DNA from: Clostridiales bacterium
Lineage (GTDB): Bacteria; Bacillota; Clostridia; Oscillospirales; Acutalibacteraceae
Assembly (NCBI GenBank): GCA_024680655.1
Contig: JAILBY010000026.1
Location: forward strand, 4,109 to 68,108
Direction: 5' to 3'
Length of the DNA: 64,000 bases
The notes beneath the pieces are model-generated. The model did no database searches, was not told where the DNA came from, and was given only the letters and a program-made list of their open reading frames with translations. Both the position numbers and the translations under genes were made by a program. Below are positions 6,699 through 41,886 of the stretch, piece by piece; the stretch's first letter is position 1; every line of letters begins with the position of its first letter.

Positions 6699-7817
6699 TT
6701 GAATCATTTTTCAGACGACTGGAAAAACTTAAAGCATATTGTCCTGTATGGGTATGGAAATGTTGGAAAGGCGTGCTTTAACAAAATAAAGTCTGATTTT
6801 TCCGTAGATTTCATAATGGACAAGGATACGGAAAAATTAAAAAAAGGCGCATTCGGCGTTCCCGTGCTTTCTCCAAAAGACGGTTTGGCGGCTCTTGACG
6901 GTCAGAAAATCATTGTAATGACAGGCGGAAGAGTTTATCAAGAAATATCCGATTTTCTAAAAAACGAAGGCCTAGTGGAGTTTAAGGATTATTGCGGCAT
7001 TGAGTATTTGATAACTCATTGGTACTGGGAAGTAAAAGGCCTGAACTGCGTGATGGAGCTGCACAGCGCCTTAACAATGGATTGCACGTTAAAATGCAAA
7101 AATTGCAATATGTTTGTTCCGTTTTATGAAAAAAGCGTGTCGTATGACTTGCACAGCCTTAAAGAAGATGTTGACGCGCTTTTTAAGTATGTTGATTATG
7201 TTTTTTGCTATACTTTGCTTGGCGGAGAGCCTTTTTTGTATAAGCAGATTGGGGAATTTATTCAATATCTAGCGACATCATACAGAAATAAGATTGGAAC
7301 GATAAAAATAATAACAAACGGCACTTTGATTCCAAAAACAGAAACAATTGACGCGCTTTGCAAGTTTAATATTTGGGTAAGCGTGAGCGATTATACAACT
7401 TGCGTTCCATACCAAAAACGATTGGAAGAGTTGAAGACTGTTTTTGAAAATAACGGCGTTGATTATACAATTGCAAGCCAGGGCAACTGGTTAGCCTTTG
7501 GTTTTCCCAATGCCCCTGCTTGCATTGACAAAGAATATTGCGCCGCCCACATGAAAAACTGTTCTCCCATTTTTCACGGCTACAATGACAAAAAAATATT
7601 TTATTGCCATGTGGCGTGGAGCGCCGAAAAAATCGGGAAGTATGTTCTGCAAGAAAAAGATTTTGTTGACTTGGAGAAGTTGCCTGTGAGCGACAGGCAT
7701 GTCATTGCGGAACATTGCTTGGGCAACATAAAAGACGGCTATGTTAGTTTTTGTCGTGTGTGCGGCGGTTGTGGAAATGACAATGAGAATGTCGTTCCTG
7801 CCGGCGAGCAGGAGTAG
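6699..7817 (+). CDS. Rossmann-like module + radical SAM enzyme with Cys-rich (SPASM/twitch-like) C-terminus
   Basis: TTG start 8 nt after aaggag. HIVLYGYGNVGKA module. CxxxCxxC in CTLKCKNCNM. C-terminal CRVCGGCG. Confidence 0.8.
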   Translation: MNHFSDDWKNLKHIVLYGYGNVGKACFNKIKSDFSVDFIMDKDTEKLKKGAFGVPVLSPKDGLAALDGQKIIVMTGGRVYQEISDFLKNEGLVEFKDYCGIEYLITHWYWEVKGLNCVMELHSALTMDCTLKCKNCNMFVPFYEKSVSYDLHSLKEDVDALFKYVDYVFCYTLLGGEPFLYKQIGEFIQYLATSYRNKIGTIKIITNGTLIPKTETIDALCKFNIWVSVSDYTTCVPYQKRLEELKTVFENNGVDYTIASQGNWLAFGFPNAPACIDKEYCAAHMKNCSPIFHGYNDKKIFYCHVAWSAEKIGKYVLQEKDFVDLEKLPVSDRHVIAEHCLGNIKDGYVSFCRVCGGCGNDNENVVPAGEQE

Positions 7818-8957: not shown

Positions 8958-10154
8958 ATGTTTTTACGCATGATGTTAAGTAAATACTTGCAAAGAATAA
9001 AATCTTCTCAAAAGCGTGTGGTTCTATATGGCGCGGGAAAGATAGGCAAAGCCTTAAAATCAATGCTTGAAAAGAACAATATATTGCCCCAAGGCTTTGT
9101 TGTTAGCGACAAGAACATGAATAAGGATGAAGTTGATGGCCTTAAAGTGTTTGGACTTGATGAGGTGATAAATTTGTGGGGTGGTGAAAATATTCTTGCC
9201 CTTGTCGCTGTGAAAGAACCTTGGAATAACGAGGTTGTTGCTAAAATAAAAAGTTGTCGTAATTTGGAATATCTTGATATTATCCCTGAACTGCTTACGC
9301 TTGACATAAAACCAGAACTTTTTGAAATAAACGCTGTTGTTGGATGTTCTGTCGCTTGTAAGTATTGCCCACAGTCCGCGTTAATAAAGGCTTACAGCGC
9401 GAAGAATGCTGCTTCTCCGCGTGTATTGTCATTTGATGTGTTCCGCCAAGCCTTGGATAAAATACCAGTGAAAAAAAATATAGCGTTCAGTGGTTTTTCG
9501 GAGCCTTTCTTGAATCCTGATATTACAAAAATGATAAAATATGCGCATGAGAAAGGGCACGGAATCATGCTTAATACGACGCTTGTGGGCATGACAAAGG
9601 AAAAATTCGCGGAAATTCGTGATATTCCAATTGCAAATTTTACTTTGCATTTGCCCGACAAAGATAATTATGCAAAAATACCTATTACGGAACAATATAT
9701 TGAACTTTTGAAAATGGTTTTGGATTGGAAGTGGCTGAAGAATGGGAGCTATATTCCTGTCGTGGATAAGGCTAATGGCCAGGGGGCTTTGCCAAAAGAA
9801 GTTGAGCAAATTATACATGGAAAAGTATTGTTCCATTCTGAGCTGGCGGACAGAGCCGGAAATCTAGCAGATTCAGATATTTACAGTATAGGAACTCTTA
9901 ATGGACGCATACGCTGCAATTATTCACCGGATATTTCAAATTTTGTTATGATGCCAAATGGCGATGTGTACTTGTGTTGCATGGATTTCGGACTTCGACA
10001 TAAGATAGGAAATATTCTTGAACAAAGTTATGAAGATCTTCTAAAGAGTTCGGAACTTCAAAAAATACGAAAAGCCATGGATAGTGATGATGGTGAATGT
10101 TTGTGCAGGCATTGCACAGAGGCTCAAGTTATTGCTGAGTCGAAAAAAAGCTAG
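8958..10154 (+). CDS. Rossmann-like module + radical SAM/SPASM-like enzyme
   Basis: RVVLYGAGKIGKAL...QGFVVSD module. CxxxCxxC in CSVACKYCPQ. C-terminal Cys cluster YLCCMDFG...GECLCRHC. Alternative start ATG 8970. Confidence 0.8.
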   Translation: MFLRMMLSKYLQRIKSSQKRVVLYGAGKIGKALKSMLEKNNILPQGFVVSDKNMNKDEVDGLKVFGLDEVINLWGGENILALVAVKEPWNNEVVAKIKSCRNLEYLDIIPELLTLDIKPELFEINAVVGCSVACKYCPQSALIKAYSAKNAASPRVLSFDVFRQALDKIPVKKNIAFSGFSEPFLNPDITKMIKYAHEKGHGIMLNTTLVGMTKEKFAEIRDIPIANFTLHLPDKDNYAKIPITEQYIELLKMVLDWKWLKNGSYIPVVDKANGQGALPKEVEQIIHGKVLFHSELADRAGNLADSDIYSIGTLNGRIRCNYSPDISNFVMMPNGDVYLCCMDFGLRHKIGNILEQSYEDLLKSSELQKIRKAMDSDDGECLCRHCTEAQVIAESKKS

Positions 10155-12506: not shown

Positions 12507-13766
12507 ATGGGGCGAAAATTGTTAAGGGTGCTTGGAAAGTCAAAGGACTTTATGGACAATAAGGGGTGTATTGTTTGGGGAGCGACTAGAAGAACCGCAG
12601 TAAACTGTGCTAGCATTTATCTTGACGACAGGGAAGTTCGTGTTATAGACAGTCAGCGAGAAAAACACGGCCAAGTTCTATGTATTGGAAAAAAAGAGTT
12701 TGTTATAGAATCCAGTGATATTTTAAACAATCTGGATTCAAAAGCTTGGTGTCTGGCAATTTCAAGCCAAAATTATTACGAAGAAATAAGAGATTTAATA
12801 AGGGCTTCTTATGCAGGCTGGGATGCTTCGACAATAAATTTTGATCAATTGTACAGAACATATGAGTCATTGGATGATTTGTTTAAATTGGATTATGTTT
12901 TTCATAAGCGCATGTTGAATGCCTGTATATTAGGAGATATAGAAGCTTATCAAAATACTGCAAAGAATATAGTCTCAAGTTTTTTGTCCTGTAGTGGTTA
13001 TGAATATTTTTGCTTGCCAAGCGCTTCCAATGTTGTAATAATGATTCAGGGAGATGCAGACTCTTATGTCTTAAAGTTTCCTAGTTTTGACGGGTCGCAT
13101 TCTTTGAAACAAATAAAAGCAATATTGAATAATAAAGAGAAAATAATCGGGAAAGACAAACTTGTGTTGTATGAAGACTCCGAAGGCTTTGTGCTTTCTC
13201 GCAAGGCGCAGGTAATTGAAAACTGGGAGCAAGAGGAGGTAAAGCAAGCGCTATCCATCCTGAAACAAATCGAAAAATCAGATGTTTTAGTGGATAAGAA
13301 TATTGAGCCGTTATTGTTTGTATCTGAGAGACATGTAAAAAAATTCTGCAATCTTGAAGAAAAAAGAATTCAGACGCTTGTGAATGATATAAAGTGTCAT
13401 TCTGAAAAAAAACGAATTAGTCATGGGGACACTCATTGCGGTAATTTTCTTAAACATGAAAACGAAGTGTATTTGATTGATTGGGACACGCTAGCAATGC
13501 GCGATGATTTATGGGATGTTTTATTTTTTATAGGTGATTTATGGTATGGAAGGGCCGCGCGAATATACAAAAATTGGGAAGACATGTTGTTGGAATATTT
13601 AGACGGAAAAATTGATGATGTTATGATGAGGTACGCCAGGGCTAAGATGATCGGAATTATGATTAAAATTGAAGACGTCTTTTCAAAGGCTGGCGTAAAC
13701 ACAGATTTTATTACTGGTGAAATAAAAAAGAGCGTTAATGAATATGTCGCATTATATAAGTTGTGA
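12507..13766 (+). CDS. Degenerate Rossmann-like module + protein-kinase-like fold phosphotransferase (APH/choline-kinase type)
   Basis: Catalytic-loop region ISHGDTHCGNFLKHENEVYLIDWDTLAMRDDLWDV (HGD...N...IDWD pattern). N-terminus GCIVWGATRR. Confidence 0.65.
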   Translation: MGRKLLRVLGKSKDFMDNKGCIVWGATRRTAVNCASIYLDDREVRVIDSQREKHGQVLCIGKKEFVIESSDILNNLDSKAWCLAISSQNYYEEIRDLIRASYAGWDASTINFDQLYRTYESLDDLFKLDYVFHKRMLNACILGDIEAYQNTAKNIVSSFLSCSGYEYFCLPSASNVVIMIQGDADSYVLKFPSFDGSHSLKQIKAILNNKEKIIGKDKLVLYEDSEGFVLSRKAQVIENWEQEEVKQALSILKQIEKSDVLVDKNIEPLLFVSERHVKKFCNLEEKRIQTLVNDIKCHSEKKRISHGDTHCGNFLKHENEVYLIDWDTLAMRDDLWDVLFFIGDLWYGRAARIYKNWEDMLLEYLDGKIDDVMMRYARAKMIGIMIKIEDVFSKAGVNTDFITGEIKKSVNEYVALYKL

Positions 13767-19629: not shown

Positions 19630-21438
19630 TTGTCAGAACTAGAATACCCTTTTGATGGCGCGTATCTTCTCAAAAAACGAAAGTCAATAAAGCGTGAGCT
19701 GTTGGCACGGATTGAACAATTGGAACAGTCCGGCACGAAAATTCTCACCAAGAAAATAGCCGTTCTTGGCGGTTCTACTACTCATGACATAAAAGATATC
19801 CTTGAGCTTTTTCTTTTAAATTACGGAATTAAGCCTGAGTTTTACGAAAGCGAGTACGCCCAGTATTGGAACGACATTATGTTTGACAATGCTGAGCTTT
19901 CTGAATTCAAGCCTGACATCATTTTTATTCATACATCAACACGGAATATCACAAGTTTTCCGACGGTGCGAGATTCTGCGGAATCAATAAACGCAATGTT
20001 GGACAATCAGTTCTCGCATTTTGAGCAGATGTGGAGCAAGGCTTTTGAAACTTACAAGTGTCCGATTGTTCAGAATAACTTTGAGCAGCCGTTTTATCGC
20101 CTTTTAGGAAACCGTGACGTATGGGATTTTCATGGCAGATGTAATTTTGTCTCCCGCCTGAATCAGCGATTCTATGAATACGCGCAGATACGTGAAAATT
20201 TCTATATAAATGACATTGATTACATGGCAAGCTGCTACGGCTTGCAAAAGTGGGCTGATCCGTTCTATTGGCATATGTACAAGTACGCTCTTTGTGTGGA
20301 CGCGATTCCTGAATTTGCCTATAACCTTGCAAATATAATAAAGTCTATTTACGGAAAGAATAAAAAGGCAATCGTCTGCGATTTGGACAACACGCTCTGG
20401 GGCGGAATCGTGGGAGACGACGGCGCGGAGAATATAGAAATCGGGCAGGAAACTTCTGTCGGACAGCTTTATTCAGAGTTCCAGACGTATCTAAAAGCTC
20501 ACAAAGATTTGGGCGTGCTTTTGACAGTCGACTCAAAAAATGACGAGGAAAATGCGCTCGCCGGCCTTAACCGCCCTGACAGCATTTTAAAGCCCGATGA
20601 TTTCATTGTAGTCAAAGCAAACTGGGATCCTAAGGATTTGAATCTTGTTGAAACCGCAAAAGAACTTAACATCGGAAATGATGCGCTTGTGTTTATTGAT
20701 GACAATCCCGCCGAGCGTGAGATTGTCCGCGCGCAGGTTGGCGGCGTAGCCGTTCCTGAAATGAGCGCACCTGAACGCTATATAAATGTGCTTGACCGCA
20801 GCGGATTCTTTGAAGTGACGGCATTCTCGGCTGACGATTTGAGCCGCAATGAAATGTACAAGGCGAATGTCGAACGCGCGAAACAGGAAGCAAGCTTCGC
20901 TGATTATGGCGAATATCTCAAATCGCTGGAAATGAAAGCAGAAATCAAGCCGTTCGCGCCGATTTACATGAGCCGAATCGCCCAGCTTACAAACAAGAGC
21001 AACCAGTTTAACTTGACGACGCTCCGGTGCACGCAGGCGGATATTGAGCGGGTGGCGGCAGACGGCAATTACATAACATTATATGGAAAGCTGGAAGACA
21101 AATTCGGCGACAACGGGGTTGTTAGCGTTGTGTTCGGACATATTGATGAAAGTGAGAAAATACTTTTTCATATAGACTTGTGGCTCATGAGCTGCCGCGT
21201 GCTTAAGCGGGATATGGAATTTGCCATGATGGACAGTCTTTCGGCTGAATGCAAGTCACGTGGAATTAAAAAAATCCGCGGTTACTATTATCCGACCTCC
21301 AAAAACAAGATGGTAAAAGACTTTTATGCCCTTCATGGCTTTGCCAGGGTATCAGAAGATGCTGATGGCAATGCAATATGGGAGCGTAAAATTGAAGATT
21401 ATGAAAACAAAAACAAAGTGATAGAGGTGAACAAATGA
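19630..21438 (+). CDS. FkbH-like / HAD-IIIC family protein (candidate ACP loader)
   Basis: TTG start. HAD-IIIC signature AIVCDLDNTLWGGIVGDDG, then VFIDDNPAERE. C-terminal GNAT-like fold region LWLMSCRVLKRDMEFAMMD. Confidence 0.85.
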   Translation: MSELEYPFDGAYLLKKRKSIKRELLARIEQLEQSGTKILTKKIAVLGGSTTHDIKDILELFLLNYGIKPEFYESEYAQYWNDIMFDNAELSEFKPDIIFIHTSTRNITSFPTVRDSAESINAMLDNQFSHFEQMWSKAFETYKCPIVQNNFEQPFYRLLGNRDVWDFHGRCNFVSRLNQRFYEYAQIRENFYINDIDYMASCYGLQKWADPFYWHMYKYALCVDAIPEFAYNLANIIKSIYGKNKKAIVCDLDNTLWGGIVGDDGAENIEIGQETSVGQLYSEFQTYLKAHKDLGVLLTVDSKNDEENALAGLNRPDSILKPDDFIVVKANWDPKDLNLVETAKELNIGNDALVFIDDNPAEREIVRAQVGGVAVPEMSAPERYINVLDRSGFFEVTAFSADDLSRNEMYKANVERAKQEASFADYGEYLKSLEMKAEIKPFAPIYMSRIAQLTNKSNQFNLTTLRCTQADIERVAADGNYITLYGKLEDKFGDNGVVSVVFGHIDESEKILFHIDLWLMSCRVLKRDMEFAMMDSLSAECKSRGIKKIRGYYYPTSKNKMVKDFYALHGFARVSEDADGNAIWERKIEDYENKNKVIEVNK

Positions 21439-21677
21439 CAAGAGAAGAAGTTTTTGAAAAGCTCAACGAAGTTTTTCGCGATGTTTTTGATGACGAGGAC
21501 ATCAAAGTAGCAGAATCTACAAACGCCGATGACATAGAAGACTGGGACAGTCTTTCTCATATCAATCTTGTTGTCGCTGTTGAAAAAGAATTCGGCATAA
21601 AATTCAGTATGGGCGAAACTCAGAAAATGAAGAACGTCGGCGAGATGGTTGATATTATCCTAGAGCGGACGAAATAG
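21435..21677 (+). CDS. Acyl carrier protein
   Basis: 80 aa, ATGA overlap with the FkbH-like gene. Phosphopantetheine-site motif IEDWDSLSHINLV. Confidence 0.8.
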   Translation: MTREEVFEKLNEVFRDVFDDEDIKVAESTNADDIEDWDSLSHINLVVAVEKEFGIKFSMGETQKMKNVGEMVDIILERTK

Positions 21678-21686
21678 ACTTGCTTT

Positions 21687-22109
21687 ATGAATGAATTTAC
21701 CTTTGAGGATATCGCCTCCGCTCAAAACATGGAGCAATCATTTTCTGTGACTGTAACACAGGAAATGATGCGTGATTTTCTGAAAATTACCGGTGATTCA
21801 AATCCAATGCATGTAGACGTGGGCTATGCCAAGCAAAACGGCTTTCCGTCATGTTTGGTATACGGCCTTCTAACCACAAGCTTTTATTCTACATTGGCAG
21901 GTGTTTATCTTCCTGGAAAATATTGTCTTTTGCAGGAGGTTTCAACTCAGTTTGCAAAGCCTGTTTTTATTGGCGATATTCTTACCGTGAGCGGAAAGGT
22001 CGCGGAAACTCAAGAAACTTTTAAGAGAATTATAATAAAAGCACGCATTACAAATCAAGACGGAAAAACTGTTAACCGCGCAACCATAACAGCGGGTGTG
22101 TTAAAGTGA
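21687..22109 (+). CDS. MaoC-like (hotdog fold) dehydratase
   Basis: ITGDSNPMHVDVGYAKQNGFPSCLVYGLL. Length 140 aa. Confidence 0.85.
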   Translation: MNEFTFEDIASAQNMEQSFSVTVTQEMMRDFLKITGDSNPMHVDVGYAKQNGFPSCLVYGLLTTSFYSTLAGVYLPGKYCLLQEVSTQFAKPVFIGDILTVSGKVAETQETFKRIIIKARITNQDGKTVNRATITAGVLK

Positions 22110-22870
22110 AAAAAGTATATTTAATTCTTGGGGCTTCTTCTGATTTGGGAATAGAGCTGATAAAACAACTGAATGGTGAGAATCCGACTGATGAAAAAGT
22201 TTTTATCGCCCATTATCATTCATCAAAAGAAAAACTGGAGCAGATTTCTCTGAATCAAAATAGAAGTCTTGTTTGCGTCAAGTCAGACTTGGGTGATATG
22301 GCTTCTGTGGACCTTCTTATTGAGAAAGTTCGTTCTTGTTGCGCAGAATATAACATGGACGCGCCAACTCATGTTGTTCATCTCGCTGCGGAGCCATTCC
22401 GTTACATGAAGTTAAAGGAATTTTCACGCGACAGGCTTATACATAATATTGATGTTCAAGTCAGCTCTTTTGCAAAAATTATGCAGTCTTTTCTTCCTTC
22501 AATGGCAAAAAGAAAGCGGCACGACAAAGTTGTGGTTATGTTAACAAGCTATCTATTGAATGCTTCGCCAAAACTTGTGCTTGATTACGTAGTGACAAAA
22601 TCCGCTTTGCTTGGCCTAATGAGGAGCATTGCGGCTGATTATCTTGGGAAGGGGGTGAATATAAATGCTCTTTCCCCTTCAATGATTGAAACAAAATTTT
22701 TGCAGAATGTTGATGAAAGGATCGTTCAGATGATTGCAGAAGGCAGTCCTGAGAAACGAAATGCAACTGTTGCAGATGTTGTGCCTGTCATTCAATTTCT
22801 TCTATCTGATGCGGCAAATTATTTGCATGGCGCAAACTTAAATGTAACATATGGGGGGGGATTTAGATGA
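22106..22870 (+). CDS. Short-chain dehydrogenase/reductase
   Basis: ILGASSDLGIELIKQL glycine loop, catalytic YVVTKSAL (YxxxK). ATGA overlap with the MaoC gene. Confidence 0.8.
   Translation: MKKVYLILGASSDLGIELIKQLNGENPTDEKVFIAHYHSSKEKLEQISLNQNRSLVCVKSDLGDMASVDLLIEKVRSCCAEYNMDAPTHVVHLAAEPFRYMKLKEFSRDRLIHNIDVQVSSFAKIMQSFLPSMAKRKRHDKVVVMLTSYLLNASPKLVLDYVVTKSALLGLMRSIAADYLGKGVNINALSPSMIETKFLQNVDERIVQMIAEGSPEKRNATVADVVPVIQFLLSDAANYLHGANLNVTYGGGFR
22853..22860 (+). repeat. Poly-G tract (G8) at the SDR 3' end and MBOAT ORF 5' end
   Basis: atgggggggga. The SDR frame reads tat ggg ggg gga ttt aga tga. The overlapping MBOAT ORF frame reads atg ggg ggg gat. Confidence 0.95.
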
Positions 22871-22904
22871 TAAAAAAGTTTTGCTTTCGAGGTTCCTTTT
22901 TATA

Positions 22905-24494
22905 ATGCATTTTCTTTATAATCTCCTAAAATTCATCGTAGATGATTTCTCCATTATGTCTTTTTGGTTTTGGACATGTCTCGCTGCGTTTGCTGTGATT
23001 TATTACACTGTGGGCAAGAGACTTCGCGTTCAGTGGATTCTGCTTTTGCTTGCAAGCCTGTTTTTTTACAGAGCAAACTGTTCCACAAAACTTATGCTCT
23101 GGATGCTTGTTCCTGTCTGCTTGACTTATCTTGTGGCGCTCGTAATAAACAACTTGCAAGGCCTGAGGCGAAGCTTGCTTCTTTTCTGCGCGGTTGCGGC
23201 AAGTGTCGCGTTCCTTGTCTATTTTAAGGAGCGGAATTTCTTTATAGTTACTCATAACGCGCTTGCATGCGTGTTTAACTTTGGACATTGGGAAAAAGTA
23301 AATATTGCGGCTCCACTTGGAATCTCTTATCTTATTTTGATGCTCGTAAGTTACACGCTTGATGTTTCGTGGGGACTTGTCAAACCGCAAAAAAATCCGC
23401 TTAAATTTCTTTTGTATGTGATTTATTTTCCTATTACAACTTCAGGACCGATTACAAGATATGTCGAAGTGGAGAATCAACTTTTTGCAGAACACAATTT
23501 TGATTATGACCGCTTTTGTTTCGGAGTCCAGCGGGTTGTCTGGGGAATGTTCAAGAAAATGATAGTCGCCGATAGAATTGGTCTAATCGTTGGAACAATT
23601 TATGGCAATTGGGAAAATTACACAGGGTTCACGCTTGCGATTGGGCTTCTTGCATACACATTGCAAGTTTATACAGACTTCTCTGGTTGCATAGACATGG
23701 CGTTGGGCGCGTCTCAAATTCTTGGTATAAATTTGCCTGAAAATTTCCGCCAGCCGTTCTTTTCATCAAGTCTTTCTGAAATTTGGCGAAGATGGCACAT
23801 GACATTGGGTTTTTGGGTAAAAGACTATATCCTCTATCCGATGTTAAAGTCTCGGTTAATTCAACAGTTCTCTAATTTCTTAAAAACAAGGCTTGGGAAG
23901 AAAAATCGTTATGCAAAACTTATTCCAACTTGGTGCGGAATGTTGGTTGTTTGGTTCACGGTAGGATTCTGGCACGGTGGATCTTGGAAATATATATTTG
24001 GCGGCGGGCTTTTTTTCTTCATTATGATTGCCGGCGGTCAATTGTTGGAACCGTTGTTTGCTTGGCTTATAAGAATAATGAGAATCAGGACCGAAACTGC
24101 AAGTTGGCGTTTGTTCCATAGGTTAAGAACGTTCTTCCTTTTTGCAGTGGCTGTTTCATTCCAACGGGCCCCATCTTTTAAAACTGGTTTGTGCATGTGG
24201 AAACGTGTTTTTGTCGAATTCAATCCATGGATTTTTGTTGATGGAACCTTGTTTAATATTGGTCTTGATGCCAAAGATTTCTTCGTGTTGCTCTTCGGAG
24301 GGATGATTATGCTGTTTGTTGAACTTGGCGAACATGGGAACAAGGCCGAATCTATAAGTATGAGGCGATGGATTGCTGGTCAAAATATAGCGTTTCGTTG
24401 GATAATCTATTTGGGGCTTGTGTTTAGCATAATTATTTTTGGAATGTATGGCCCAGATTATAATGCGAAATCATTCATTTACGCAGGTTTTTAG
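22905..24494 (+). CDS. MBOAT-family membrane O-acyltransferase (DltB/AlgI-like)
   Basis: Conserved His regions SLSEIWRRWHMTLGFWVKDYILYP and VGFWHGGSW; polytopic. The start is uncertain: the ORF is open from ATG 22851, and other candidates are ATG 22905 and ATG 22956. Confidence 0.85.
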   Translation: MHFLYNLLKFIVDDFSIMSFWFWTCLAAFAVIYYTVGKRLRVQWILLLLASLFFYRANCSTKLMLWMLVPVCLTYLVALVINNLQGLRRSLLLFCAVAASVAFLVYFKERNFFIVTHNALACVFNFGHWEKVNIAAPLGISYLILMLVSYTLDVSWGLVKPQKNPLKFLLYVIYFPITTSGPITRYVEVENQLFAEHNFDYDRFCFGVQRVVWGMFKKMIVADRIGLIVGTIYGNWENYTGFTLAIGLLAYTLQVYTDFSGCIDMALGASQILGINLPENFRQPFFSSSLSEIWRRWHMTLGFWVKDYILYPMLKSRLIQQFSNFLKTRLGKKNRYAKLIPTWCGMLVVWFTVGFWHGGSWKYIFGGGLFFFIMIAGGQLLEPLFAWLIRIMRIRTETASWRLFHRLRTFFLFAVAVSFQRAPSFKTGLCMWKRVFVEFNPWIFVDGTLFNIGLDAKDFFVLLFGGMIMLFVELGEHGNKAESISMRRWIAGQNIAFRWIIYLGLVFSIIIFGMYGPDYNAKSFIYAGF

Positions 24495-24505
24495 GAGATG
24501 ATTTT

Positions 24506-25969
24506 ATGGCTGATAGGTCAAAGATAGAAAACCTTGCAAAGTGCTCCATGTTTTTGATTTTTTTCGTTATTTTATTTTGGTTTTGCAATAAAGTTTTTAT
24601 TCTAAAAAGAAATGATGGAATAACTCCAATGCAGAATTTTTATGCACAAAAGCAAAATACTGTGGATGTGCTTTTTTGTGGCCCAAGTCTCATGGGAGAA
24701 CTTGGAATGGATGAATTGTGGTATGACTATGGAATAGCTGGTTATAATTTATGGGGAAGTGGCGAACCATTTTGGAATTGCTATTTTGGATTAAAAGAGG
24801 CGTTGAAAAGTCAAAAACCAAGAGTTGTGGTTTTGGAAGTTTCCCCTGCCTCCTATCAGTTTGAGTATTCAGACAATACAGGGCAATTGGTTAATACGCA
24901 AGGTATGAAATTCGGCAAAAACTTTCTTGATGCAATAAGAGTTTCAACTCCAAAAGAGAAATATCTTGAGCTTTTTTTTGGAATACAGACTTTCCATTGG
25001 AGATTTAAAGAACTCTCTAGAGATGATTTTTTGCATTTCACTTGGATTCAGGATTGTATAACTGATAAAGGCAGCTTTCATTATTATCATAATAATGCAA
25101 AAATGGACTTGACGGATATATCTAGTATTGTAGAATTTAAGAATTTATATCCAAAAGCAGAAGAATATCTTCGTCTGTTTATAGAATATGCTCAGCAGAG
25201 AAAGATTCAAGTGTTGCTAATAAAAACTCCTTCTATCAACAGGATGGCTGAAGCACCGTTTTATAATTGTGTTTCTAAAATTGCAGATGAATATGGGGTC
25301 AAATTCATAGATACTAATCGTGTATCCGATGAAATTGGTTTTGAGCTAGATGATTCCGCTGATGGAGGTCATATAAATGTTCGTGGAATGTGGAAGTGTA
25401 CAAGCTACATAGGAAATGTCTTGCGAAATGAATACAATGTTCCTGATAGGCGTGGGGAGAAACAGTATATCTCGTATGAAAAATACACAGAAAAATGTCA
25501 TAAAAAACATATTGTGGAGATGAAAGACAAAAAAGGTTATGCTGCCGAAGTACTTCGCTCAACTCAAAAACCGTACCTTGATTTGTATGTTCCAATTTAT
25601 TTTAGTTCATATAATTACAACGCACCCGTTTTTGTAAGATGTGGACTTTCTGAACCTGATAATGATTTTTCATGGACGGATAGAAGGTTTCTGCGTATGG
25701 TTTGCAATTTCCCAAAAAACTGCATGGGAAAAGACTTGAAGGCGAAATACAACTTGGCTCAAATTTTCAATGGTAATCAGAGGATTATTGTGTATGTGAA
25801 TAATAGCCGTGTCTTTGACAAAAAACTTTCAAACGGTGAGAATTTAGAATTTCATTTTAGTTTGCCGGCAGATAGCGTTACAGCCCACATAATGTTGGAA
25901 TTTCCAAATTTATTAAATAATGACAAAAAAAATGCATTAGCAATCAAAAATGTTGTTTTTACGGAGTGA
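24506..25969 (+). CDS. Membrane-anchored DltD/SGNH-like extracytoplasmic acyltransferase partner
   Basis: N-terminal TM helix. Block-I-like VDVLFCGPSLMGE, late DSADGGHINVRG (DxxH-like). It lies immediately downstream of the MBOAT gene. Confidence 0.55.
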   Translation: MADRSKIENLAKCSMFLIFFVILFWFCNKVFILKRNDGITPMQNFYAQKQNTVDVLFCGPSLMGELGMDELWYDYGIAGYNLWGSGEPFWNCYFGLKEALKSQKPRVVVLEVSPASYQFEYSDNTGQLVNTQGMKFGKNFLDAIRVSTPKEKYLELFFGIQTFHWRFKELSRDDFLHFTWIQDCITDKGSFHYYHNNAKMDLTDISSIVEFKNLYPKAEEYLRLFIEYAQQRKIQVLLIKTPSINRMAEAPFYNCVSKIADEYGVKFIDTNRVSDEIGFELDDSADGGHINVRGMWKCTSYIGNVLRNEYNVPDRRGEKQYISYEKYTEKCHKKHIVEMKDKKGYAAEVLRSTQKPYLDLYVPIYFSSYNYNAPVFVRCGLSEPDNDFSWTDRRFLRMVCNFPKNCMGKDLKAKYNLAQIFNGNQRIIVYVNNSRVFDKKLSNGENLEFHFSLPADSVTAHIMLEFPNLLNNDKKNALAIKNVVFTE

Positions 25970-26165: not shown

Positions 26166-26800
26166 TTGACTTTGTTCTCTTTCCAGGAGAGACAAGGAAA
26201 TATAGATTGTGGGGTGTATGGCAAGATTGTGATGAAATCTCAAAGTTGCGTACTAAAAATGACGGTCGCTGTTTTAGCCCAGACCGCTCTGCCTTTGATT
26301 AGAAAATTATCTGTTAACCAGTGCTTTCTTAAGCAGGATTTTGAAGTGGATGCACCGTATAAAAAAAACTTTTGACTGATATAACACAGATGACTTGCAA
26401 GAATGTTAAACTTTATGTTTGCTTCTTTTGTACTGCTACAATGGAGAAATCATTTCTCTTGTCACGGACAAAGAGTGCGGGCAGTCGGAAAGTCGGATTT
26501 ACACGCTTGATACCGACATAGGTCGGAAAGCCTGTGGAAGGTACGGGCCTCGTCCGAAAAGTGCGAAAGCCACAACACGTCCTTAAAAACTGGAGGGTAG
26601 ACCCTGGAAAACAGGTGCTTCATCACGGCTGATCGGCCCTTAAAATCGAAGCCGTTGAGAATTTTGTCGTTGTAAAGTGCTTTGTCTATAGCATAGAATA
26701 AAATGCAGTCCGATTCCGACACCATCTTAAGAAGGGGCGGGGGAGCATGTGCGACAATCCCAGAGCGAAGATTTTGTTTTCATGCTGTAGCCGTACGTGA
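26166..26800 (+). mobile_element. Degenerate rve (DDE integrase)-type transposase relic, IS3-like, with multiple stops and frameshifts
   Basis: Fragments in shifting + frames: CGVYGKIVMKS...IRKLSV, LKQDFEVDAPYKKNF then LLTDITQM (the pn.kW.TDITy region), FITADRP/KIEAVENF (the hsDrG.ef region), GSMCDNP...SEDFVFML (the C.DNa.aEsFF..LK region). The segment is GC-richer than its surroundings. Confidence 0.5.
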
Positions 26801-26843: not shown

Positions 26844-26873
26844 ATAATAATTTTATATGATGTGAGAAGAAAA

Positions 26874-29800
26874 ATGATATTTGATATATCTAGAAAACAG
26901 ATTTTTCAGGAAGGTCGTATAGCTTGGGTTGATATTTATAAAGCGGTTGCCATAATTTTAATGGTGTTGGGACATGCTACAGGACGCTTTAATCTATGGG
27001 TTTATCAGTTTCATATGGCGGCATTTTTCTTTGTTTCTGGATATGTCGTTAATTACAGTAGACGTTCTTTGTCTAGAACTATTTGGGACAGGTTTTTTAC
27101 TCTGCTTTTACCATATTTTTCTGTTTTTACTCTTTTTCTTTCTCTTGAGTTTGTTTTGCAACATTTGGGCCTTAGACATTTCATTTTAGGAGATTTTAAC
27201 TATGTCGGTATTAAAAAGAGCCTTTTAGATTTGTTTGTTTATGGAAATTCCCACGCTTGTTTTTTAGGGGCTGGCTGGTTTGTCATTGCTCTTTTTGGCA
27301 TAGAGGTGTTGGGGAAAGTTTTATACGATCTTTTGTGCAAAAATAGGTTAGCATATTTTGTTTCTGCTGCAGCGATTTTCATTTTTGGTCGATGGATGGT
27401 GGATCAGGGGTATAGATTTCATATAGGTATTTTTTATGTGAATTCCATTTTTATCGGTCATTTTTACTTTGCTTTGGGGCATTTGGCTCGTAGTTCTGAA
27501 TTGTTAGAAATTATGCGCACAAAGCTTCCGTTGTGGGGGAAAGTTGCTTGTTTTGTGGTTGTAGTATGTCTTTTGCAAGTTTTTAGACATTTTGGTTTTT
27601 TGGTCGATTTTGCAAGCAATGTTTTTAATCATAATTTATGGTGCGAAGCCCTTGCCGCTATAAACGGTTGCATATTTTTGTTTCTCTGTTCTGTTTTTCT
27701 AGAGAGTATATATGCTCTCAGGAATCCTTTGTTCTTGCTTGGTTCGAATACACTTGGGGTTTTGTTTTTTCACTTTATGTTTTTTAAGCCAGTTCAGTTG
27801 TTGTTGATATTCGTAAAACGAAAAGACATTTCTTTATTGAATGAATTCGTTCCTAAATCTTTCGGCAGATACAGTTGGCCGTTGTTTGTTGTTGTCTCTA
27901 TTGTTTTGAGTGTCGGCCTATGGCTTTTACTTCTAAAGATTCCTTTGTTTAAGTTTTTGTTTGGAAAGTCTTCAGCTATTTATGACAAGTGGCGTTGTTT
28001 TGCTAAGCGTTCATTTGAACTGATTTTTGGCGTTGAAACAAAGACTTTGAGCATTTTAAATTATGCTTGTAAGACTAAGAGTTGTTTGTTAGAGAGTAAA
28101 ACTTGGATTTTGCCGTTTGCATTTTCCATTTTGGTGGCGATTCCAATGTTAACGCAGGGGGTTATGCTCAATGATGAGTTGCAAATAAATTCATGGGTGG
28201 AAGGCGGCTTCGCGACTTGTTTTAGTCATTGGTTTTCTTTGGCAAAAATGCAGGGACGACACATTTCTGCTTTTAGTTACGCGTTTTTTATGACTCTTGT
28301 AGAGCTTTTTGGAGGTCAGCGTTCTCCGCTAAATAGACTTTTGCCTGTTTTCTTGCATTTTTTCAGTGTGTTTTTATATTTTCGTTTTATAAAAAGAATT
28401 ACGGCGAATGGTAATTTTGCAAAATTTTGCTCTGTTGTTCTTTTGGCTTTTACTCCATTGCTTTTTGAGCATACTATACCAAATGCGTTTAATTATTTTT
28501 TACCAGATTTTATAATCCTATTGCTATCTTTTATTTTGTTTTATGATTATCAAATTTCGCACAAAAAACAGAAAATTATTTGGGCAATGATACTATTCTT
28601 CGCGGCTTGTTGTTCATACGAACTTTTTGTTACCTATGTTTTTGTTTATCTCGTTATAATTTTAGAAACACAAAAAACACGTCTTTTTTCAAAAAAGACT
28701 ATTCTTTTATTTGCTCCTGCTGTTATAACCGCTTTCATCTATGTCGCGTTTTACTGTGTTTTCAGAATTATGTTTCCATCTGGTTATTCTGGGAACACAA
28801 TCGGTTTTTCAGCACGGGGGGCGGCAAAAGTGCTGTTGGGAATGTTTCGATCTTCCGTTCCTGGTATTTTTTCATTAAACGGAAAATACAAATATTTTTC
28901 GGCTTTATATTCTAATAATCTTAATCCTATTGACTATTTTAGAATAATTGGCGTTGTTTTGTTGTTTTGTGCTATTTCGTATGTTTTGATAAAAAGACTT
29001 TTAGAATCTTCTGAGAAAAAGAATATAAAGACATTTGTTCTGCCGTTGTTTTGCGGTTGTGTTTATATGGTTTTGCCGGCCTTTCCTAACAGTCTTGGAC
29101 AAATGTATCAAAACGATTTTAATAGAGGCCACTGGTTGCTTGCCCTTCCAGTTTCGTATTTTTTGTTATATGCAGCCGTTTTCGCAGTTTGTTGGTGTTT
29201 GTTGCATTTTGCTCGGTTTGTTACAAGAAAAAAGTGTTCGGATATTGTTCCGTCTTTGATATCTATTGCGCTTGCTTTATATTTGATTCCCGTTCAGTAT
29301 TTAAATTCCATTGTGGCGAATCAGCAATATAAGGATTGGGAGCGTATTTGTGACATTCATGATTTGTTGGATACGGATTTTGTAAATGGGCTTGGTGGCG
29401 CGACCGCTTATGCTCCGGATTTTTTTGAAACTCGTAACCTTCTTGCAATAGACGCAGGACATTACGCCCTTTGGCAAAACTTAAAGAGGCATCGGCTTCA
29501 GATAGTGAACAGGACGTCTTTTGCCGATTTAAAAGACGATGAATGTTTTATAGCCATGCCATTTGACAAATACTTTGTTGTACAAGACAATGGCAGTGTG
29601 TTTGTTGTCAGCAAGAATCCGCTTTTTGGAAGAGCTCTTGTTCCTGTTTCGAGCGGAAACTGGAAAGAGGCAGTCTTGCAACGTCAATGGAAAGACAAGT
29701 CTTTCACAATATATGAGACAAACCTTGTGGTTGGTGATTCTATTGCTGCAATAGGAAAGACATTGAACAGAGCTTTTGTACAAAAAGGTTTTTATTCGGA

Positions 29801-30098
29801 CGGTTGGCTGCAAAAAGAAAGTTTGTTTAAGATTAGAACGGATACCTCTGGCCGTGTTGATTTTTCGTTTTATTATCCTTTTGATGACTGTGACGACAAA
29901 AAGCGTATTGTCATATCTGTCAACGGTGAAGAACATGGTTTCGTTGTAAGAGAAAACCTGTCAAATTTTTCCGTTTCTGCCCCTGCAAAACAAGTCGTTG
30001 ATGTAAAGATAGTGTGTTCATGGGAGTTGTCTGCAGAAAGAAAAAACGGCGATTCGCGAGAGTTGTGCATAGTGCTTTCAAAGATGAATGGAATGTAA
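26874..30098 (+). CDS. Acyltransferase-3 (OafA/AT3) domain fused to a large GT-C-like polytopic domain and a C-terminal soluble domain
   Basis: AT3 N-terminus IAWVDIYKAVAIILMVLGH with about 10 TM helices (aa 1 to about 370). A second polytopic block follows, with the loop motif MLNDELQINSW, and then a soluble tail of about 250 aa. The track start GTG 26862 is trimmed to ATG 26874. Confidence 0.65.
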   Translation: MIFDISRKQIFQEGRIAWVDIYKAVAIILMVLGHATGRFNLWVYQFHMAAFFFVSGYVVNYSRRSLSRTIWDRFFTLLLPYFSVFTLFLSLEFVLQHLGLRHFILGDFNYVGIKKSLLDLFVYGNSHACFLGAGWFVIALFGIEVLGKVLYDLLCKNRLAYFVSAAAIFIFGRWMVDQGYRFHIGIFYVNSIFIGHFYFALGHLARSSELLEIMRTKLPLWGKVACFVVVVCLLQVFRHFGFLVDFASNVFNHNLWCEALAAINGCIFLFLCSVFLESIYALRNPLFLLGSNTLGVLFFHFMFFKPVQLLLIFVKRKDISLLNEFVPKSFGRYSWPLFVVVSIVLSVGLWLLLLKIPLFKFLFGKSSAIYDKWRCFAKRSFELIFGVETKTLSILNYACKTKSCLLESKTWILPFAFSILVAIPMLTQGVMLNDELQINSWVEGGFATCFSHWFSLAKMQGRHISAFSYAFFMTLVELFGGQRSPLNRLLPVFLHFFSVFLYFRFIKRITANGNFAKFCSVVLLAFTPLLFEHTIPNAFNYFLPDFIILLLSFILFYDYQISHKKQKIIWAMILFFAACCSYELFVTYVFVYLVIILETQKTRLFSKKTILLFAPAVITAFIYVAFYCVFRIMFPSGYSGNTIGFSARGAAKVLLGMFRSSVPGIFSLNGKYKYFSALYSNNLNPIDYFRIIGVVLLFCAISYVLIKRLLESSEKKNIKTFVLPLFCGCVYMVLPAFPNSLGQMYQNDFNRGHWLLALPVSYFLLYAAVFAVCWCLLHFARFVTRKKCSDIVPSLISIALALYLIPVQYLNSIVANQQYKDWERICDIHDLLDTDFVNGLGGATAYAPDFFETRNLLAIDAGHYALWQNLKRHRLQIVNRTSFADLKDDECFIAMPFDKYFVVQDNGSVFVVSKNPLFGRALVPVSSGNWKEAVLQRQWKDKSFTIYETNLVVGDSIAAIGKTLNRAFVQKGFYSDGWLQKESLFKIRTDTSGRVDFSFYYPFDDCDDKKRIVISVNGEEHGFVVRENLSNFSVSAPAKQVVDVKIVCSWELSAERKNGDSRELCIVLSKMNGM

Positions 30099-38172: not shown

Positions 38173-38712
38173 ATGGCTAAAGAAATAAAGAGAGAAAATC
38201 TTTGTGGCAAATATGTAACATTGAGAGAAGTGTCTGTTGATGATGCAGATTTCATTCTTGCTCTTAGATGCGATGAAAAAAAAGCGAGGTTTCTTAACAA
38301 AATTAACAATGACAAAAATGCGCAGGTTGCCTACATAAAAAGATATCTTGCGACCACTGATGAATGGTATTTTATCAGCGAAAGTAAGGACGGCAGGAAA
38401 CTTGGGGCTATCAGAATATATGATTTGAGGAGCGACAGTTTTTCTTTTGGAAGCTGGGTTATGATAGACGGAGTTACTATGTCTGAAGCCTTTGAAACTG
38501 ATTATCTTACTAGAATGTACGGATTTAATGTACTTGGGTTTAACAAGAATCATTTTGATGTGCGAAAAGATAATGAAAAAGTCTTAAAGTATCATCAATT
38601 CCTGGGGGCGAAAAAAGTAGGAGAAACGGAACTTTGTTATTTGTATGAAGTTACCAAGAACGAATTTGTAAAAAGAGCAAACCTTATGTGGAAGTTGTCA
38701 GAGTCCAAATAA
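38173..38712 (+). CDS. GNAT-family N-acyltransferase
   Basis: 179 aa. AGGAG lies 9 nt upstream. RimJ/L-like N-terminus VTLREVSVDDADFILALR and a beta-strand core. Confidence 0.6.
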   Translation: MAKEIKRENLCGKYVTLREVSVDDADFILALRCDEKKARFLNKINNDKNAQVAYIKRYLATTDEWYFISESKDGRKLGAIRIYDLRSDSFSFGSWVMIDGVTMSEAFETDYLTRMYGFNVLGFNKNHFDVRKDNEKVLKYHQFLGAKKVGETELCYLYEVTKNEFVKRANLMWKLSESK

Positions 38713-38756: not shown

Positions 38757-39047
38757 ATGAAAGAAAAAATTAAAGCATTAGTAATCGACTCTTTGAATGA
38801 GTCAAAAGAAACAAATAATCTCGATTTTGAGATTAATGACGAGACAATTCTTTTGGGGGAAAACGCCGTAATGGATTCATTCGACTTTGTTTCATTCGTT
38901 TCTACTCTTGAAGAAAAGATTGCAGATGCTTTTGGCAAATCAATAACTGTTGTAAGCGAGAAGGCGTTCTCAAAGAAATACAGTCCGTTCAAAACAATTG
39001 ACCGTATTTCTGATTACATCATCGAACTTTTGAATGAGGCTGAGTAA
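38757..39047 (+). CDS. Acyl carrier protein-like
   Basis: 96 aa. AAGGAG lies 8 nt upstream. LLGENAVMDSFDFVSFVSTLEEK carries a DSx phosphopantetheinylation-type motif. Confidence 0.7.
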   Translation: MKEKIKALVIDSLNESKETNNLDFEINDETILLGENAVMDSFDFVSFVSTLEEKIADAFGKSITVVSEKAFSKKYSPFKTIDRISDYIIELLNEAE

Positions 39048-39740
39048 ATGATTATCCTTATAACAGGTACAAGCCGGGGCATAGGAAAATATCTTGCAGA
39101 AAAGTTTCTTGCTGCAGGTCATACAGTAATCGGTTTCTGTCGTAGCGAATGTGATATTCATAATGAGAATTTTTATCATTTTACAGCCGATGTTACCGAT
39201 GAAAAAGGTGTTGTAAAAGCTCTTGGTGAAGTACGGAAGCAGTTTGGTTGTATTGATGTTCTTGTCAATAATGCCGGAATTGCTTCCATGAATCATTTCT
39301 GTCTTACACCCCTTGAAACTGCAAAGCGGATTATGAATGTGAACTTCTTCGGAACTTTCCTTATGACTCGTGAATGTGCAAAACTTCTTCGCAAGAGCAA
39401 GAATGCGAGAATCATTAATTTTAGCACCGTGGCCGTTCCTCTCAACCTTGAAGGGGAGGCTTCTTATGCGGCATCTAAATCTGCGATTGAAACTCTCACT
39501 CGCACAACTTCGAAAGAACTCTCTGGTTATGGTATTACGGTAAACGCTGTTGGTCCTGTGCCGATTAAAACGGCTCTTATTGCAGGCGTGCCGGAAGATA
39601 AAATTCAGAACTTGCTTTCTCATCAGGCAATCAAACGCTTTGGTGAACCAGAAGATGTTTATAATGTAATTGATTTTTATATCAAGCCAGAGAGCAACTT
39701 TATTACAGGTCAGATTATGTATCTTGGAGGGATTAATTAA
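39048..39740 (+). CDS. SDR, 3-oxoacyl-ACP reductase (FabG)-like
   Basis: ILITGTSRGIGKYL, NNAGI, YAASKSAIE (YxxxK). Confidence 0.88.
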   Translation: MIILITGTSRGIGKYLAEKFLAAGHTVIGFCRSECDIHNENFYHFTADVTDEKGVVKALGEVRKQFGCIDVLVNNAGIASMNHFCLTPLETAKRIMNVNFFGTFLMTRECAKLLRKSKNARIINFSTVAVPLNLEGEASYAASKSAIETLTRTTSKELSGYGITVNAVGPVPIKTALIAGVPEDKIQNLLSHQAIKRFGEPEDVYNVIDFYIKPESNFITGQIMYLGGIN

Positions 39741-41320: not shown

Positions 41321-41886
41321 TGTACAATAAAGTTCGCAATTTGGGGTAGGAAAAAGCCATTGAAAATTCCAAAATGTTGGTGACCAAACTAACAAAGAGG
41401 AAAAGACAATGGCCAAGAAGAGCGATACCACATTTTTCGAAAAAAACTACTGGATTTTGTAACCGAAAAGGATCCGATGCTGGAGATGCTTCAGTGGGTG
41501 ATGGACAAGTTCATGGAGATTGAAGTCGCCCACAAAACGGGAGCTGGAAAAGGGGTTCACTCAAGAAAGCGAGCAGGCGCTCATTCAGGTCGTGCAGGAA
41601 TGCTGGCTGAACGGAGTCTCCACCCGCAAGATTTCAAGCACGAACACGCTTGAGCGGCTCAACCGCGAAATCCGCAGACGTTCGTCCGTTGTCGGCATTT
41701 TTCCTTCAACGGATTCTTACATCAGGCTGATAACAAGCTATCTGCTTGAGTATTCAGAGGACTGGCAGACTGAGAGGAGCTACATGAATGCCGGCTCAAT
41801 AAAAGTTCAAAAGGAGATTCTGTTTAACGCAGCATGATGGATTTTTTGGCTTTTTTCAAAAACGAAATTGCGAACTAAACTTGACA
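41321..41886 (+). mobile_element. IS256-family insertion sequence relic with internal deletions and recognisable terminal inverted repeats
   Basis: Transposase fragments: MAKKSDTTFFEK(frameshift at A7)LLDFVTEKDPMLEMLQWVMDKFMEIEVAHKTGAGKG, ALIQVVQECWLNGVSTRKI, and STNTLERLNREIRRRSSVVGIFPSTDSYIRLITSYLLEYSEDWQ. Left agttcgcaattt (41331-41342) and aaaaagcca (41351-41359) are mirrored by tggcttttt (41847-41855) and aaattgcgaact (41865-41876). Confidence 0.75.

Follow-up and report, generated by a model that had tools for sequence, protein, structure and literature searches.

A six-gene cassette in a 64-kb stretch of DNA from a gut or rumen Clostridiales bacterium (the whole stretch is referred to here as the window, and cassette coordinates are positions within it) appears, on balance, to encode a carrier-protein-dependent O-acylation system whose acyl group would be derived from a glycolytic intermediate. 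The cassette contains genes for an FkbH-type loader, an acyl carrier protein (ACP), a MaoC-type dehydratase, a short-chain dehydrogenase/reductase (SDR) and a membrane-bound O-acyltransferase (MBOAT), as well as for a membrane-anchored SGNH-fold protein. Charge, autolysis, recognition by phages and antibodies, and antimicrobial-peptide resistance are controlled by ester decorations such as D-alanyl and acetyl groups. To our knowledge, the enzymes responsible for glyceryl and lactyl esters on bacterial polysaccharides are largely unassigned. An initial annotation of the window had proposed that the FkbH/ACP module feeds the MBOAT/SGNH pair, and this proposal is supported by the recurrence of the gene linkage, by the existence of stand-alone operons and by the separate grouping of the associated MBOATs.

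The linkage was evaluated in two samples, comprising 80 loci from species-representative genomes collected with the SGNH protein as bait and 80 metagenome loci collected with FkbH as bait (48-69% identity). An MBOAT gene adjoins the SGNH homologue in about 75 of the 80 genome loci. Among these loci an ACP was seen solely alongside FkbH (L001, L015, L021, L028, L034 and L050), with the exceptions of L067 and L019; the FkbH-ACP pair lies directly upstream of MBOAT-SGNH in all six, and the ACP of L019 is distal. A jackhmmer search restricted this ACP type to FkbH-containing loci plus two others. In the metagenome sample, downstream sequence reaches 3.5 kb or more in 47 loci, and in 30 of these an MBOAT lies no further than 3.5 kb from FkbH(-ACP). 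The co-occurrence survey suggested in the initial annotation places the FkbH(-ACP)-MBOAT linkage in dozens of unrelated loci, some of which are stand-alone operons of 4 to 10 genes lacking any other acyltransferase. Chance juxtaposition of the cassette genes was considered and rejected, given this frequency of linkage and the stand-alone operons.

The self-contained loci take several forms. L083/84 has a stand-alone FkbH-ACP-AlgX-MBOAT set located among unrelated genes, and L171/172 is a 10-gene operon (FkbH-ACP-GcvH-Lpd-like-LplA-HgdA/B-like-activator-MBOAT-SGNH); these sets, like those of L173 and Harryflintia acetispora described next, contain no further acyltransferase. A Treponema-type contig (L173) carries a self-contained six-gene set with an HTH regulator ahead of it, and on this contig a YoeB/RelB toxin-antitoxin pair (5431-5939) is inserted between FkbH and ACP. 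All six genes are also present in a Treponema metagenome-assembled genome (MAG; L001), with FkbH and ACP 79% and 82% identical, respectively, to those of the window. In Harryflintia acetispora (GCA_015550205.1), FkbH occurs in one set with a split transketolase, ACP, MaoC, SDR, MBOAT and SGNH, which, in a named species, makes the hypothesis directly testable.

From one close relative to another, the tailoring genes located between ACP and MBOAT are exchanged. The sets observed are none at all, as in the Hungatella MAGs L015, L021 and L034 (FkbH-ACP-MBOAT-SGNH, with MaoC and SDR missing); MaoC+SDR; a VOC/Glyoxalase_4 protein; a split transketolase together with MaoC+SDR; and GcvH/LplA/2-hydroxyacyl-dehydratase-like genes. 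The closest relatives of the window cassette, L168 and L171/L172 (FkbH 81%, ACP 92%, MBOAT 66-70% and SGNH 69% identical, the L171/172 protein being the closest relative of the window SGNH protein), are of the last type. In these loci MaoC and SDR are replaced with GcvH, an Lpd-like flavoprotein, LplA, two HGD-D (2-hydroxyacyl-CoA-dehydratase-like) subunits and a BcrAD/BadFG activator, a combination that looks like a radical-dehydratase route acting on a carrier-bound C3 acid. The VOC/Glyoxalase_4 protein of L096 and L119 (135 aa) resembles methylmalonyl-CoA epimerase and could function as a C2 epimerase of glyceryl-ACP. Rather than being a one-off, the six genes of the window represent one version of a modular family in which FkbH, ACP, exchangeable tailoring genes and MBOAT are combined with either an SGNH or an AlgX partner.

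Phylogenetic placement of the MBOATs agrees with the gene linkage. The FkbH/ACP-linked MBOATs group with that of L067 in a clade (clade A, 54 of 60 bootstraps) separate from about 57 ACP-less MBOATs, and the AlgX-partnered, FkbH-linked MBOATs form another (clade C, 59 of 60 bootstraps), which reveals a second, independent recruitment. Common basic residues at positions 339, 345, 350, 354 and 426 are found in clade A and L067 and not in the ACP-less clades, which instead have R/K at 352, 359 and 360. The basic loop of clade A spans residues 333-354, ahead of the His375 helix, and is suggestive of a docking surface for the acidic ACP. A residue signature joining the clade-A MBOATs to canonical DltB was also considered and was dropped, because the discriminating positions are not found in S. 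thermophilus DltB. The L067 locus (Oscillospiraceae) encodes an 821-aa SGNH-like protein, an MBOAT ending in FVYMNY, a 76-aa carrier protein, and also a 695-aa protein that, judged by eye, resembles an AMP-binding (adenylating) enzyme at its N-terminus; this gene content would make it a Dlt-like variant with the shuttle motif fused to the MBOAT.

The window MBOAT matches PF03062, and its sole sequence matches in the PDB are DltB (E 8e-21), with both His motifs kept. DltB is also the best Foldseek match (TM-score 0.73-0.75 on the target) of the AlphaFold2 model, which has a mean predicted local distance difference test (pLDDT) score of 87.5, and an alignment of 120 MBOATs shows no variation at residues H316 (WRRWH) and H375 (WHG). 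The protein scores 134.8 bits against the DltB equivalog TIGR04091, well under the cutoff of 375, and its C-terminus is ~110 residues longer than that of DltB. Past the core that aligns to DltB there are two extra transmembrane helices (~399-512 of the 529-residue model), and the acyl-shuttle motif FIYAGF occupies residues 542-547 at the extreme C-terminus, with Tyr544 as its tyrosine. An FxYxxF motif is terminal in 78 of 78 MBOATs collected from related loci. In the published mechanism, DltB acylates the tyrosine of this motif in the microprotein DltX and PatA does so at its own C-terminus, after which the acyl group goes to the SGNH partner (PMC12148441). With its fused motif, extra helices and no DltX, the MBOAT-SGNH pair of the window has a PatA/PatB-type architecture.

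This architecture bears on a different explanation, in which two independent modules lie side by side: the MBOAT-SGNH pair would be an acetyl-CoA-dependent O-acetyltransferase of the PatA/PatB or AlgI/AlgJ type, and FkbH-ACP-MaoC-SDR would supply a cytoplasmic N- or O-acyltransferase elsewhere in the locus, acting for example on an NDP-amino sugar. We consider this explanation quite improbable. It would account for the PatA-type fused FxYxxF motif, for about 70 of the 80 homologous MBOAT-SGNH pairs having no carrier protein, and for the DegT and GNAT genes ~11-12 kb downstream of the cassette. The four-gene acyl-ACP module also occurs with a hexapeptide acyltransferase, DegT and FdtA and no MBOAT (L081/L082), where the context suggests production of N-(C3-hydroxyacyl) amino sugars by cytoplasmic N-acylation, and it stands alone in an unannotated Subdoligranulum plasmid-search record (L170). 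However, no hexapeptide acyltransferase is present in or beside the window cassette, and MBOAT-SGNH or MBOAT-AlgX is the only possible acceptor of the ACP-bound acyl group in the stand-alone operons L083/84, L171/172 and L173. Both the frequency of MBOAT linkage among the FkbH loci and the placement of FkbH-linked MBOATs, with their basic loop, in clades apart from the ACP-less ones are likewise difficult to reconcile with independent modules. FkbH-ACP(-MaoC-SDR) is a portable acyl-ACP generator, and the MBOAT-SGNH pair is its commonest, though not its sole, consumer in this subfamily. In four other loci (L127, L133, L163 and L164) FkbH-ACP lies near a hexapeptide acyltransferase and/or DegT, and MaoC/SDR were not detected.

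The partner of the MBOAT has no Pfam or NCBIfam match, including to DltD, the family for which the initial annotation had suggested a check, and a phmmer search of the PDB returned only noise; its SGNH fold was consequently read from a structural model. The AlphaFold2 model (pLDDT 82.7) has Foldseek matches with probability ~1 to PatB (7tlv), TesA, GDSL acylhydrolases and DltD. For the DltD structures 3bma and 6pfx the probability is 0.99 with a TM-score of 0.34-0.38 on the target, and PatB and TesA match better. Homologues of the protein give weak SGNH-clan matches (Lipase_GDSL_2 and DUF1574), and a profile search with the SGNH family matches GDSL proteins over block V. Residues G59, S61 and H289 are invariant in the family alignment of 38 homologues, and D286 sits in a DGGH motif. 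This alignment was too divergent to serve as a seed for genome scans, for which a 12-sequence subset was used. The protein has an N-terminal transmembrane helix (residues 4-30) and, in the model, a C-terminal beta-sandwich (~395-465) that may be a polymer-binding module; the C-terminal domain differs between homologues.

The six genes are compactly arranged (Table 1). At the first junction the start of the ACP gene covers the stop codon of FkbH in an overlap of 4 nt; the four junctions that follow are, in order, a gap of 9 nt, overlaps of 4 and 20 nt, and a gap of 11 nt. The cassette is set off by gaps of 150 nt upstream and 893 nt downstream, and the genes appear to be translationally coupled within one operon. 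The initial annotation had listed six tightly coupled genes, all of which were recovered where it placed them, the DltD/SGNH-like assignment holding only at the level of the fold. The MBOAT start is probably M19 at 22905, giving a protein of 529 aa, as its homologues are ~529 aa long and a GAGG sequence lies ~11 nt upstream of M19; with this start the SDR-MBOAT junction becomes a 34-nt gap instead of an overlap. In the existing annotation of the contig the FkbH gene is labelled 'HAD-IIIC family phosphatase' and the last gene 'hypothetical protein'.

Table 1. Genes of the acylation cassette and their positions in the window
Product	Coordinates	Strand	Length and remarks
FkbH-type loader	19630-21438	+	602 aa
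Acyl carrier protein (ACP)	21435-21677	+	80 aa, acidic
MaoC-type (R)-specific hydratase/dehydratase	21687-22109	+	140 aa, single hot-dog fold
FabG-like short-chain dehydrogenase/reductase (SDR)	22106-22870	+	254 aa
MBOAT	22851-24494	+	547 aa as open reading frame
Membrane-anchored SGNH-fold protein	24506-25969	+	487 aa

The loader is assigned with confidence to the FkbH family, with a TIGR01686 score of 276.5 bits (cutoff 146.65) and additional matches to TIGR01681 (HAD-IIIC) and FkbH_N (PF21211) in searches with Pfam and NCBIfam hidden Markov models. The TIGR01681, TIGR01686 and PF03062 memberships that the initial annotation had listed for confirmation are thus borne out for the FkbH-like protein and the MBOAT. 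The loader comprises an FkbH_N domain, a HAD-IIIC phosphatase domain and a C-terminal acyl-transfer domain, and residues 36-401 match PDB entry 3slr (BF1531; E 5e-52). An alignment of 12 sequences (34-92% identity) has as invariants DLDNT at 251-255, SKN at 302-304, DDNP at 357-360 and C522 within WLMSCRVLKR. We take C522 to be the carrier of the acyl-enzyme intermediate, by comparison with OzmB and FkbH. The predicted substrate is a phosphorylated C3 acid, by analogy with the 1,3-bisphosphoglycerate used by characterised FkbH enzymes. FkbH yields glyceryl-S-ACP from a glycolytic intermediate (Sun et al. 2008, as cited in PMC4552970), and further sources describe this reaction for FkbH enzymes (bioRxiv 10.1101/2020.08.10.245514; PMC10143770).

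The remaining cytoplasmic components are consistent with a dedicated carrier and two tailoring enzymes. The ACP matches PF00550 (E 6.5e-5), with AcpP-type models as its best NCBIfam matches (~42 bits), and is not DltC-type (16 bits against the DltC model NF003464, cutoff 68); its phosphopantetheine site is Ser39 in a DSL motif. The MaoC protein matches PF01575 (E 3e-17) and keeps the hydratase-2 motif GDSNPMH (residues 36-42, including D37 and H42), as do 11 of 11 aligned cassette homologues. The SDR matches PF13561 (adh_short_C2) and PF00106, with FabG and YmfI models as the best NCBIfam matches, all under cutoff, and its motifs GASSDLG (residues 9-15) and Y161-x3-K165 are kept in homologues.

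From family membership, motifs and gene context, the following series of reactions can be proposed. FkbH would bind a phosphorylated C3 acid (1,3-bisphosphoglycerate by family precedent), which its HAD domain would dephosphorylate; Cys522 would carry the resulting glyceryl thioester and pass the glyceryl group to the phosphopantetheine on Ser39 of the ACP. MaoC, acting through D37 and H42, would then remove the 3-hydroxyl of glyceryl-ACP to give 2-hydroxyacryloyl-ACP, the tautomer of which is pyruvoyl-ACP, and the SDR would use NAD(P)H to reduce the 2-oxo group, generating lactyl-ACP. The acidic acyl-ACP is envisaged to dock on the basic cytoplasmic loop of the MBOAT, where His375 and His316 would catalyse passage of the acyl group across the membrane to Tyr544 in FIYAGF. 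From Tyr544 the group would pass to Ser61 of the SGNH protein (catalytic set Ser61, Asp286 and His289), which would attach it as an ester to a hydroxyl group of a glycopolymer outside the membrane, the product of the surrounding locus. Relatives without MaoC and SDR would transfer glyceryl, and other tailoring sets imply other products.

Lactyl is accordingly our working choice for the transferred group, although a tentative one. No route that calls for exactly one MaoC and one SDR is simpler than dehydration followed by reduction of glyceryl-ACP, the catalytic motifs of both enzymes are intact, and the route mirrors a proposal for FkbH-containing polyketide synthase loading modules: the DH-KR-FkbH-ACP modules of the bryostatin and FR901464 polyketide synthases have been proposed or reported to turn glyceryl-ACP into lactyl-ACP. 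Somewhat less probable is that the same machinery handles another acyl group, such as glyceryl, pyruvoyl, another C3 or C2 hydroxy-acid, or the product of a different phospho-acid. Substrate specificity is not readable from sequence, FabG-like SDRs usually reduce 3-oxo groups, and the differences in tailoring sets among close relatives imply several end products.

The whole window is, by its gene content, one envelope-glycopolymer locus, with genes for TagF-like, LicD and cytidylyltransferase proteins, two Glf, YfhO, GtrA/GtrB-like proteins, two AT3 acyltransferases and many glycosyltransferases. The natural candidate for the acceptor would therefore be a teichoic-acid-like or other wall polysaccharide, and the embedding of the cassette in this locus favours a product of the locus itself. 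Acceptors of another kind (peptidoglycan, a capsular or S-layer glycan, a glycolipid or a lipoprotein) seem unlikely, though they have some points in their favour. The targets of known MBOAT-SGNH pairs include peptidoglycan (PatAB), alginate, cellulose and lipoteichoic acid (PMC12148441); the C-terminal domain of the SGNH partner is variable, as noted above; and several relatives are stand-alone operons outside glycan loci, beside GGDEF/EAL genes. These stand-alone relatives also indicate that a glycan locus in cis is not required. For the window cassette, both the acyl group and the target polymer are inferred.

A number of points weigh against the proposed carrier-dependent system as a whole. 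The MBOAT architecture matches that of PatA-type enzymes, which use acetyl-CoA, and seven clade-A MBOAT-SGNH pairs (L018, L024, L030, L032, L042, L045 and L049) are without a nearby FkbH or ACP. Conversely, FkbH-ACP-MaoC-SDR is found without an MBOAT in L081/L082 and L170. In a high-GC human-gut group (L121-L126, L129, L134, L141 and L144-L149) FkbH-SGNH-MBOAT occurs without an ACP in the locus, which indicates that FkbH can couple to MBOAT without a dedicated carrier, and the MBOATs of this group have the 'ACP-less' residues. The residues common to clade A are absent from canonical DltB and mark the clade only, the MBOAT trees are neighbour-joining trees, and the loci were drawn with two different baits. 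With respect to the chemistry, BF1531 (3slr), the nearest solved relative from which the substrate of this FkbH subfamily might be judged, is uncharacterised; MaoC and FabG-like enzymes normally handle 3-hydroxy and 3-oxo acyl groups, so that 2-oxo reduction by the SDR is an assumption; and the mechanism is derived from sequence for every cassette member.

Comparison with the Dlt pathway clarifies which features of the cassette are shared and which are new. In Dlt, and by prediction in the cassette, a cytoplasmic loader charges a small phosphopantetheinylated carrier, an MBOAT moves the acyl group to the tyrosine of FxYxxF and an anchored SGNH protein esterifies a polymer (mechanism in PMC12148441). 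Among solved structures, DltB comes nearest to the window MBOAT. The loader of the cassette is however an FkbH-type phosphatase/acyltransferase in place of the adenylating DltA, as the initial annotation had recognised; TIGR01686 is above cutoff, and no AMP-binding domain is found in 19630-25969, the sole AMP-binding gene of the window (39740-41065) belonging to a separate cassette 14 kb away. The proposed acyl group is a glycolysis-derived hydroxy-acid that would add no positive charge, in contrast to D-alanine, and two tailoring enzymes would act on it while it is carrier-bound. There is no DltX microprotein, since the cassette genes leave no room between them for a small open reading frame, and the shuttle motif is fused to the MBOAT on the extra helices. 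None of the ACP, MBOAT and SGNH proteins passes its Dlt model (DltC, DltB and DltD, respectively). The Dlt logic of MBOAT, carrier and DltD-like partner put forward in the initial annotation holds, but the MBOAT is not a DltB orthologue (TIGR04091 135 vs 375) and the SGNH protein is probably not a DltD orthologue (no DltD Pfam match); the pair is instead of the PatA/PatB type.

Likeness to PatA/PatB extends to the fused C-terminal FxYxxF motif (FIYANF in NgPatA, FIYAGF in the window) and to a separate, N-terminally anchored SGNH partner, PatB being among the top structural matches of the window protein. PatA/PatB, AlgI/AlgJ/AlgX and WssH/WssI differ in using acetyl-CoA, whereas the cassette encodes an ACP and a loader and its MBOAT falls in the carrier-linked clade, a context that speaks against an acyl-CoA donor. 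Dlt is so far the only MBOAT pathway known to use a carrier protein, and in 2025 the other MBOAT/SGNH pathways were described as being without one (PMC12148441), which is why an operon-encoded ACP and loader are noteworthy; the cassette would contradict this current generalisation on MBOAT/SGNH donors. The glyceryl-ACP loaders FkbH, OzmB and Tmn16 of polyketide and non-ribosomal peptide pathways share with the cassette the TIGR01686 family, a dedicated ACP and intact HAD and Cys motifs. The cassette differs from these in having no ketosynthase, condensation or other assembly-line genes, in using free-standing MaoC and SDR proteins and not polyketide synthase DH and KR domains, and in the destination of the acyl-ACP, which would be used by a membrane acyltransferase to decorate the envelope. 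A role in polyketide or other secondary metabolism was considered and dropped, as the window has no KS, AT or C domains and its context is made up of glycan genes. In Campylobacter jejuni, cj1302 is an uncharacterised FkbH-domain gene in the flagellar glycosylation locus (PMC7099621). It is similar in being an FkbH-like gene within a glycan-modification locus and different in that no MBOAT-SGNH pairing is reported in that paper; by analogy it more likely resembles the cytoplasmic N-acylation variant of L081.

Other features of the window were noted in the course of the analysis. A possible second carrier-protein cassette (38757-41065, plus strand) follows a GNAT gene (38173-38712) and contains a 96-aa open reading frame with a DSF motif and no Pfam match, a FabG-like SDR (39048-39740) and the AMP-binding enzyme mentioned above (441 aa); it could be a further acyl-activation module of this locus that serves glycan decoration. 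Two radical-SAM proteins (one SPASM) and an APH-like kinase lie among glycosyltransferases (6699-7817, 8958-10154 and 12507-13766) and are unusual tailoring enzymes for a wall-polymer locus. One AT3 acyltransferase (26862-30098) is 1078 aa long, of which ~700 residues form a membrane extension at the C-terminus; a DUF7657/DUF7654 protein of 710 aa is encoded at 47864-49996. A transposase-like remnant (26462-26725, minus strand) lies in the gap immediately after the cassette, a C-terminal fragment of an IS256-like transposase is located at 41520-41837 (plus strand), and GC content rises to 0.438 in the 20-22 kb bin, compared with ~0.38 to either side; the transposase remnants and the GC shift fit a mosaic assembly of the locus by horizontal transfer.

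The initial annotation was aware of no functional characterisation of such a system, and a search of open-access full text, in which a subscription paper could be missed, likewise found no description and no paper linking FkbH to an MBOAT-SGNH system or to envelope acylation; in the same open-access literature the only mention of FkbH in a glycan context is that of cj1302. The cassette would represent a form of MBOAT-SGNH polymer acylation that depends on a carrier, as Dlt does, and whose new elements are an FkbH loader and tailoring on the carrier. More broadly, across gut and rumen Bacillota, Spirochaetota and other phyla, FkbH(-ACP)-MBOAT-SGNH/AlgX cassettes may well make up a class of envelope-acylation systems that is widespread, modular and as yet undescribed, and that would be the second carrier-dependent MBOAT pathway after Dlt. 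Such a class would convert a glycolytic intermediate into glyceryl, lactyl and other C3 esters, with exchangeable tailoring genes (MaoC+SDR, VOC epimerase-like, transketolase and 2-hydroxyacyl-dehydratase-like) providing surface diversity.

If the cassette functions in the proposed way, a non-adenylating loader can feed MBOAT-SGNH machines with a metabolite-derived hydroxy-acid that is tailored on the carrier, and enzymes for the glyceryl and lactyl esters of bacterial polysaccharides would be identified. The residues that differ between clade A and clade B would offer a natural comparison for examining how an MBOAT chooses between ACP and CoA donors. The cassettes would also represent a diversifying surface-modification system in abundant gut commensals.

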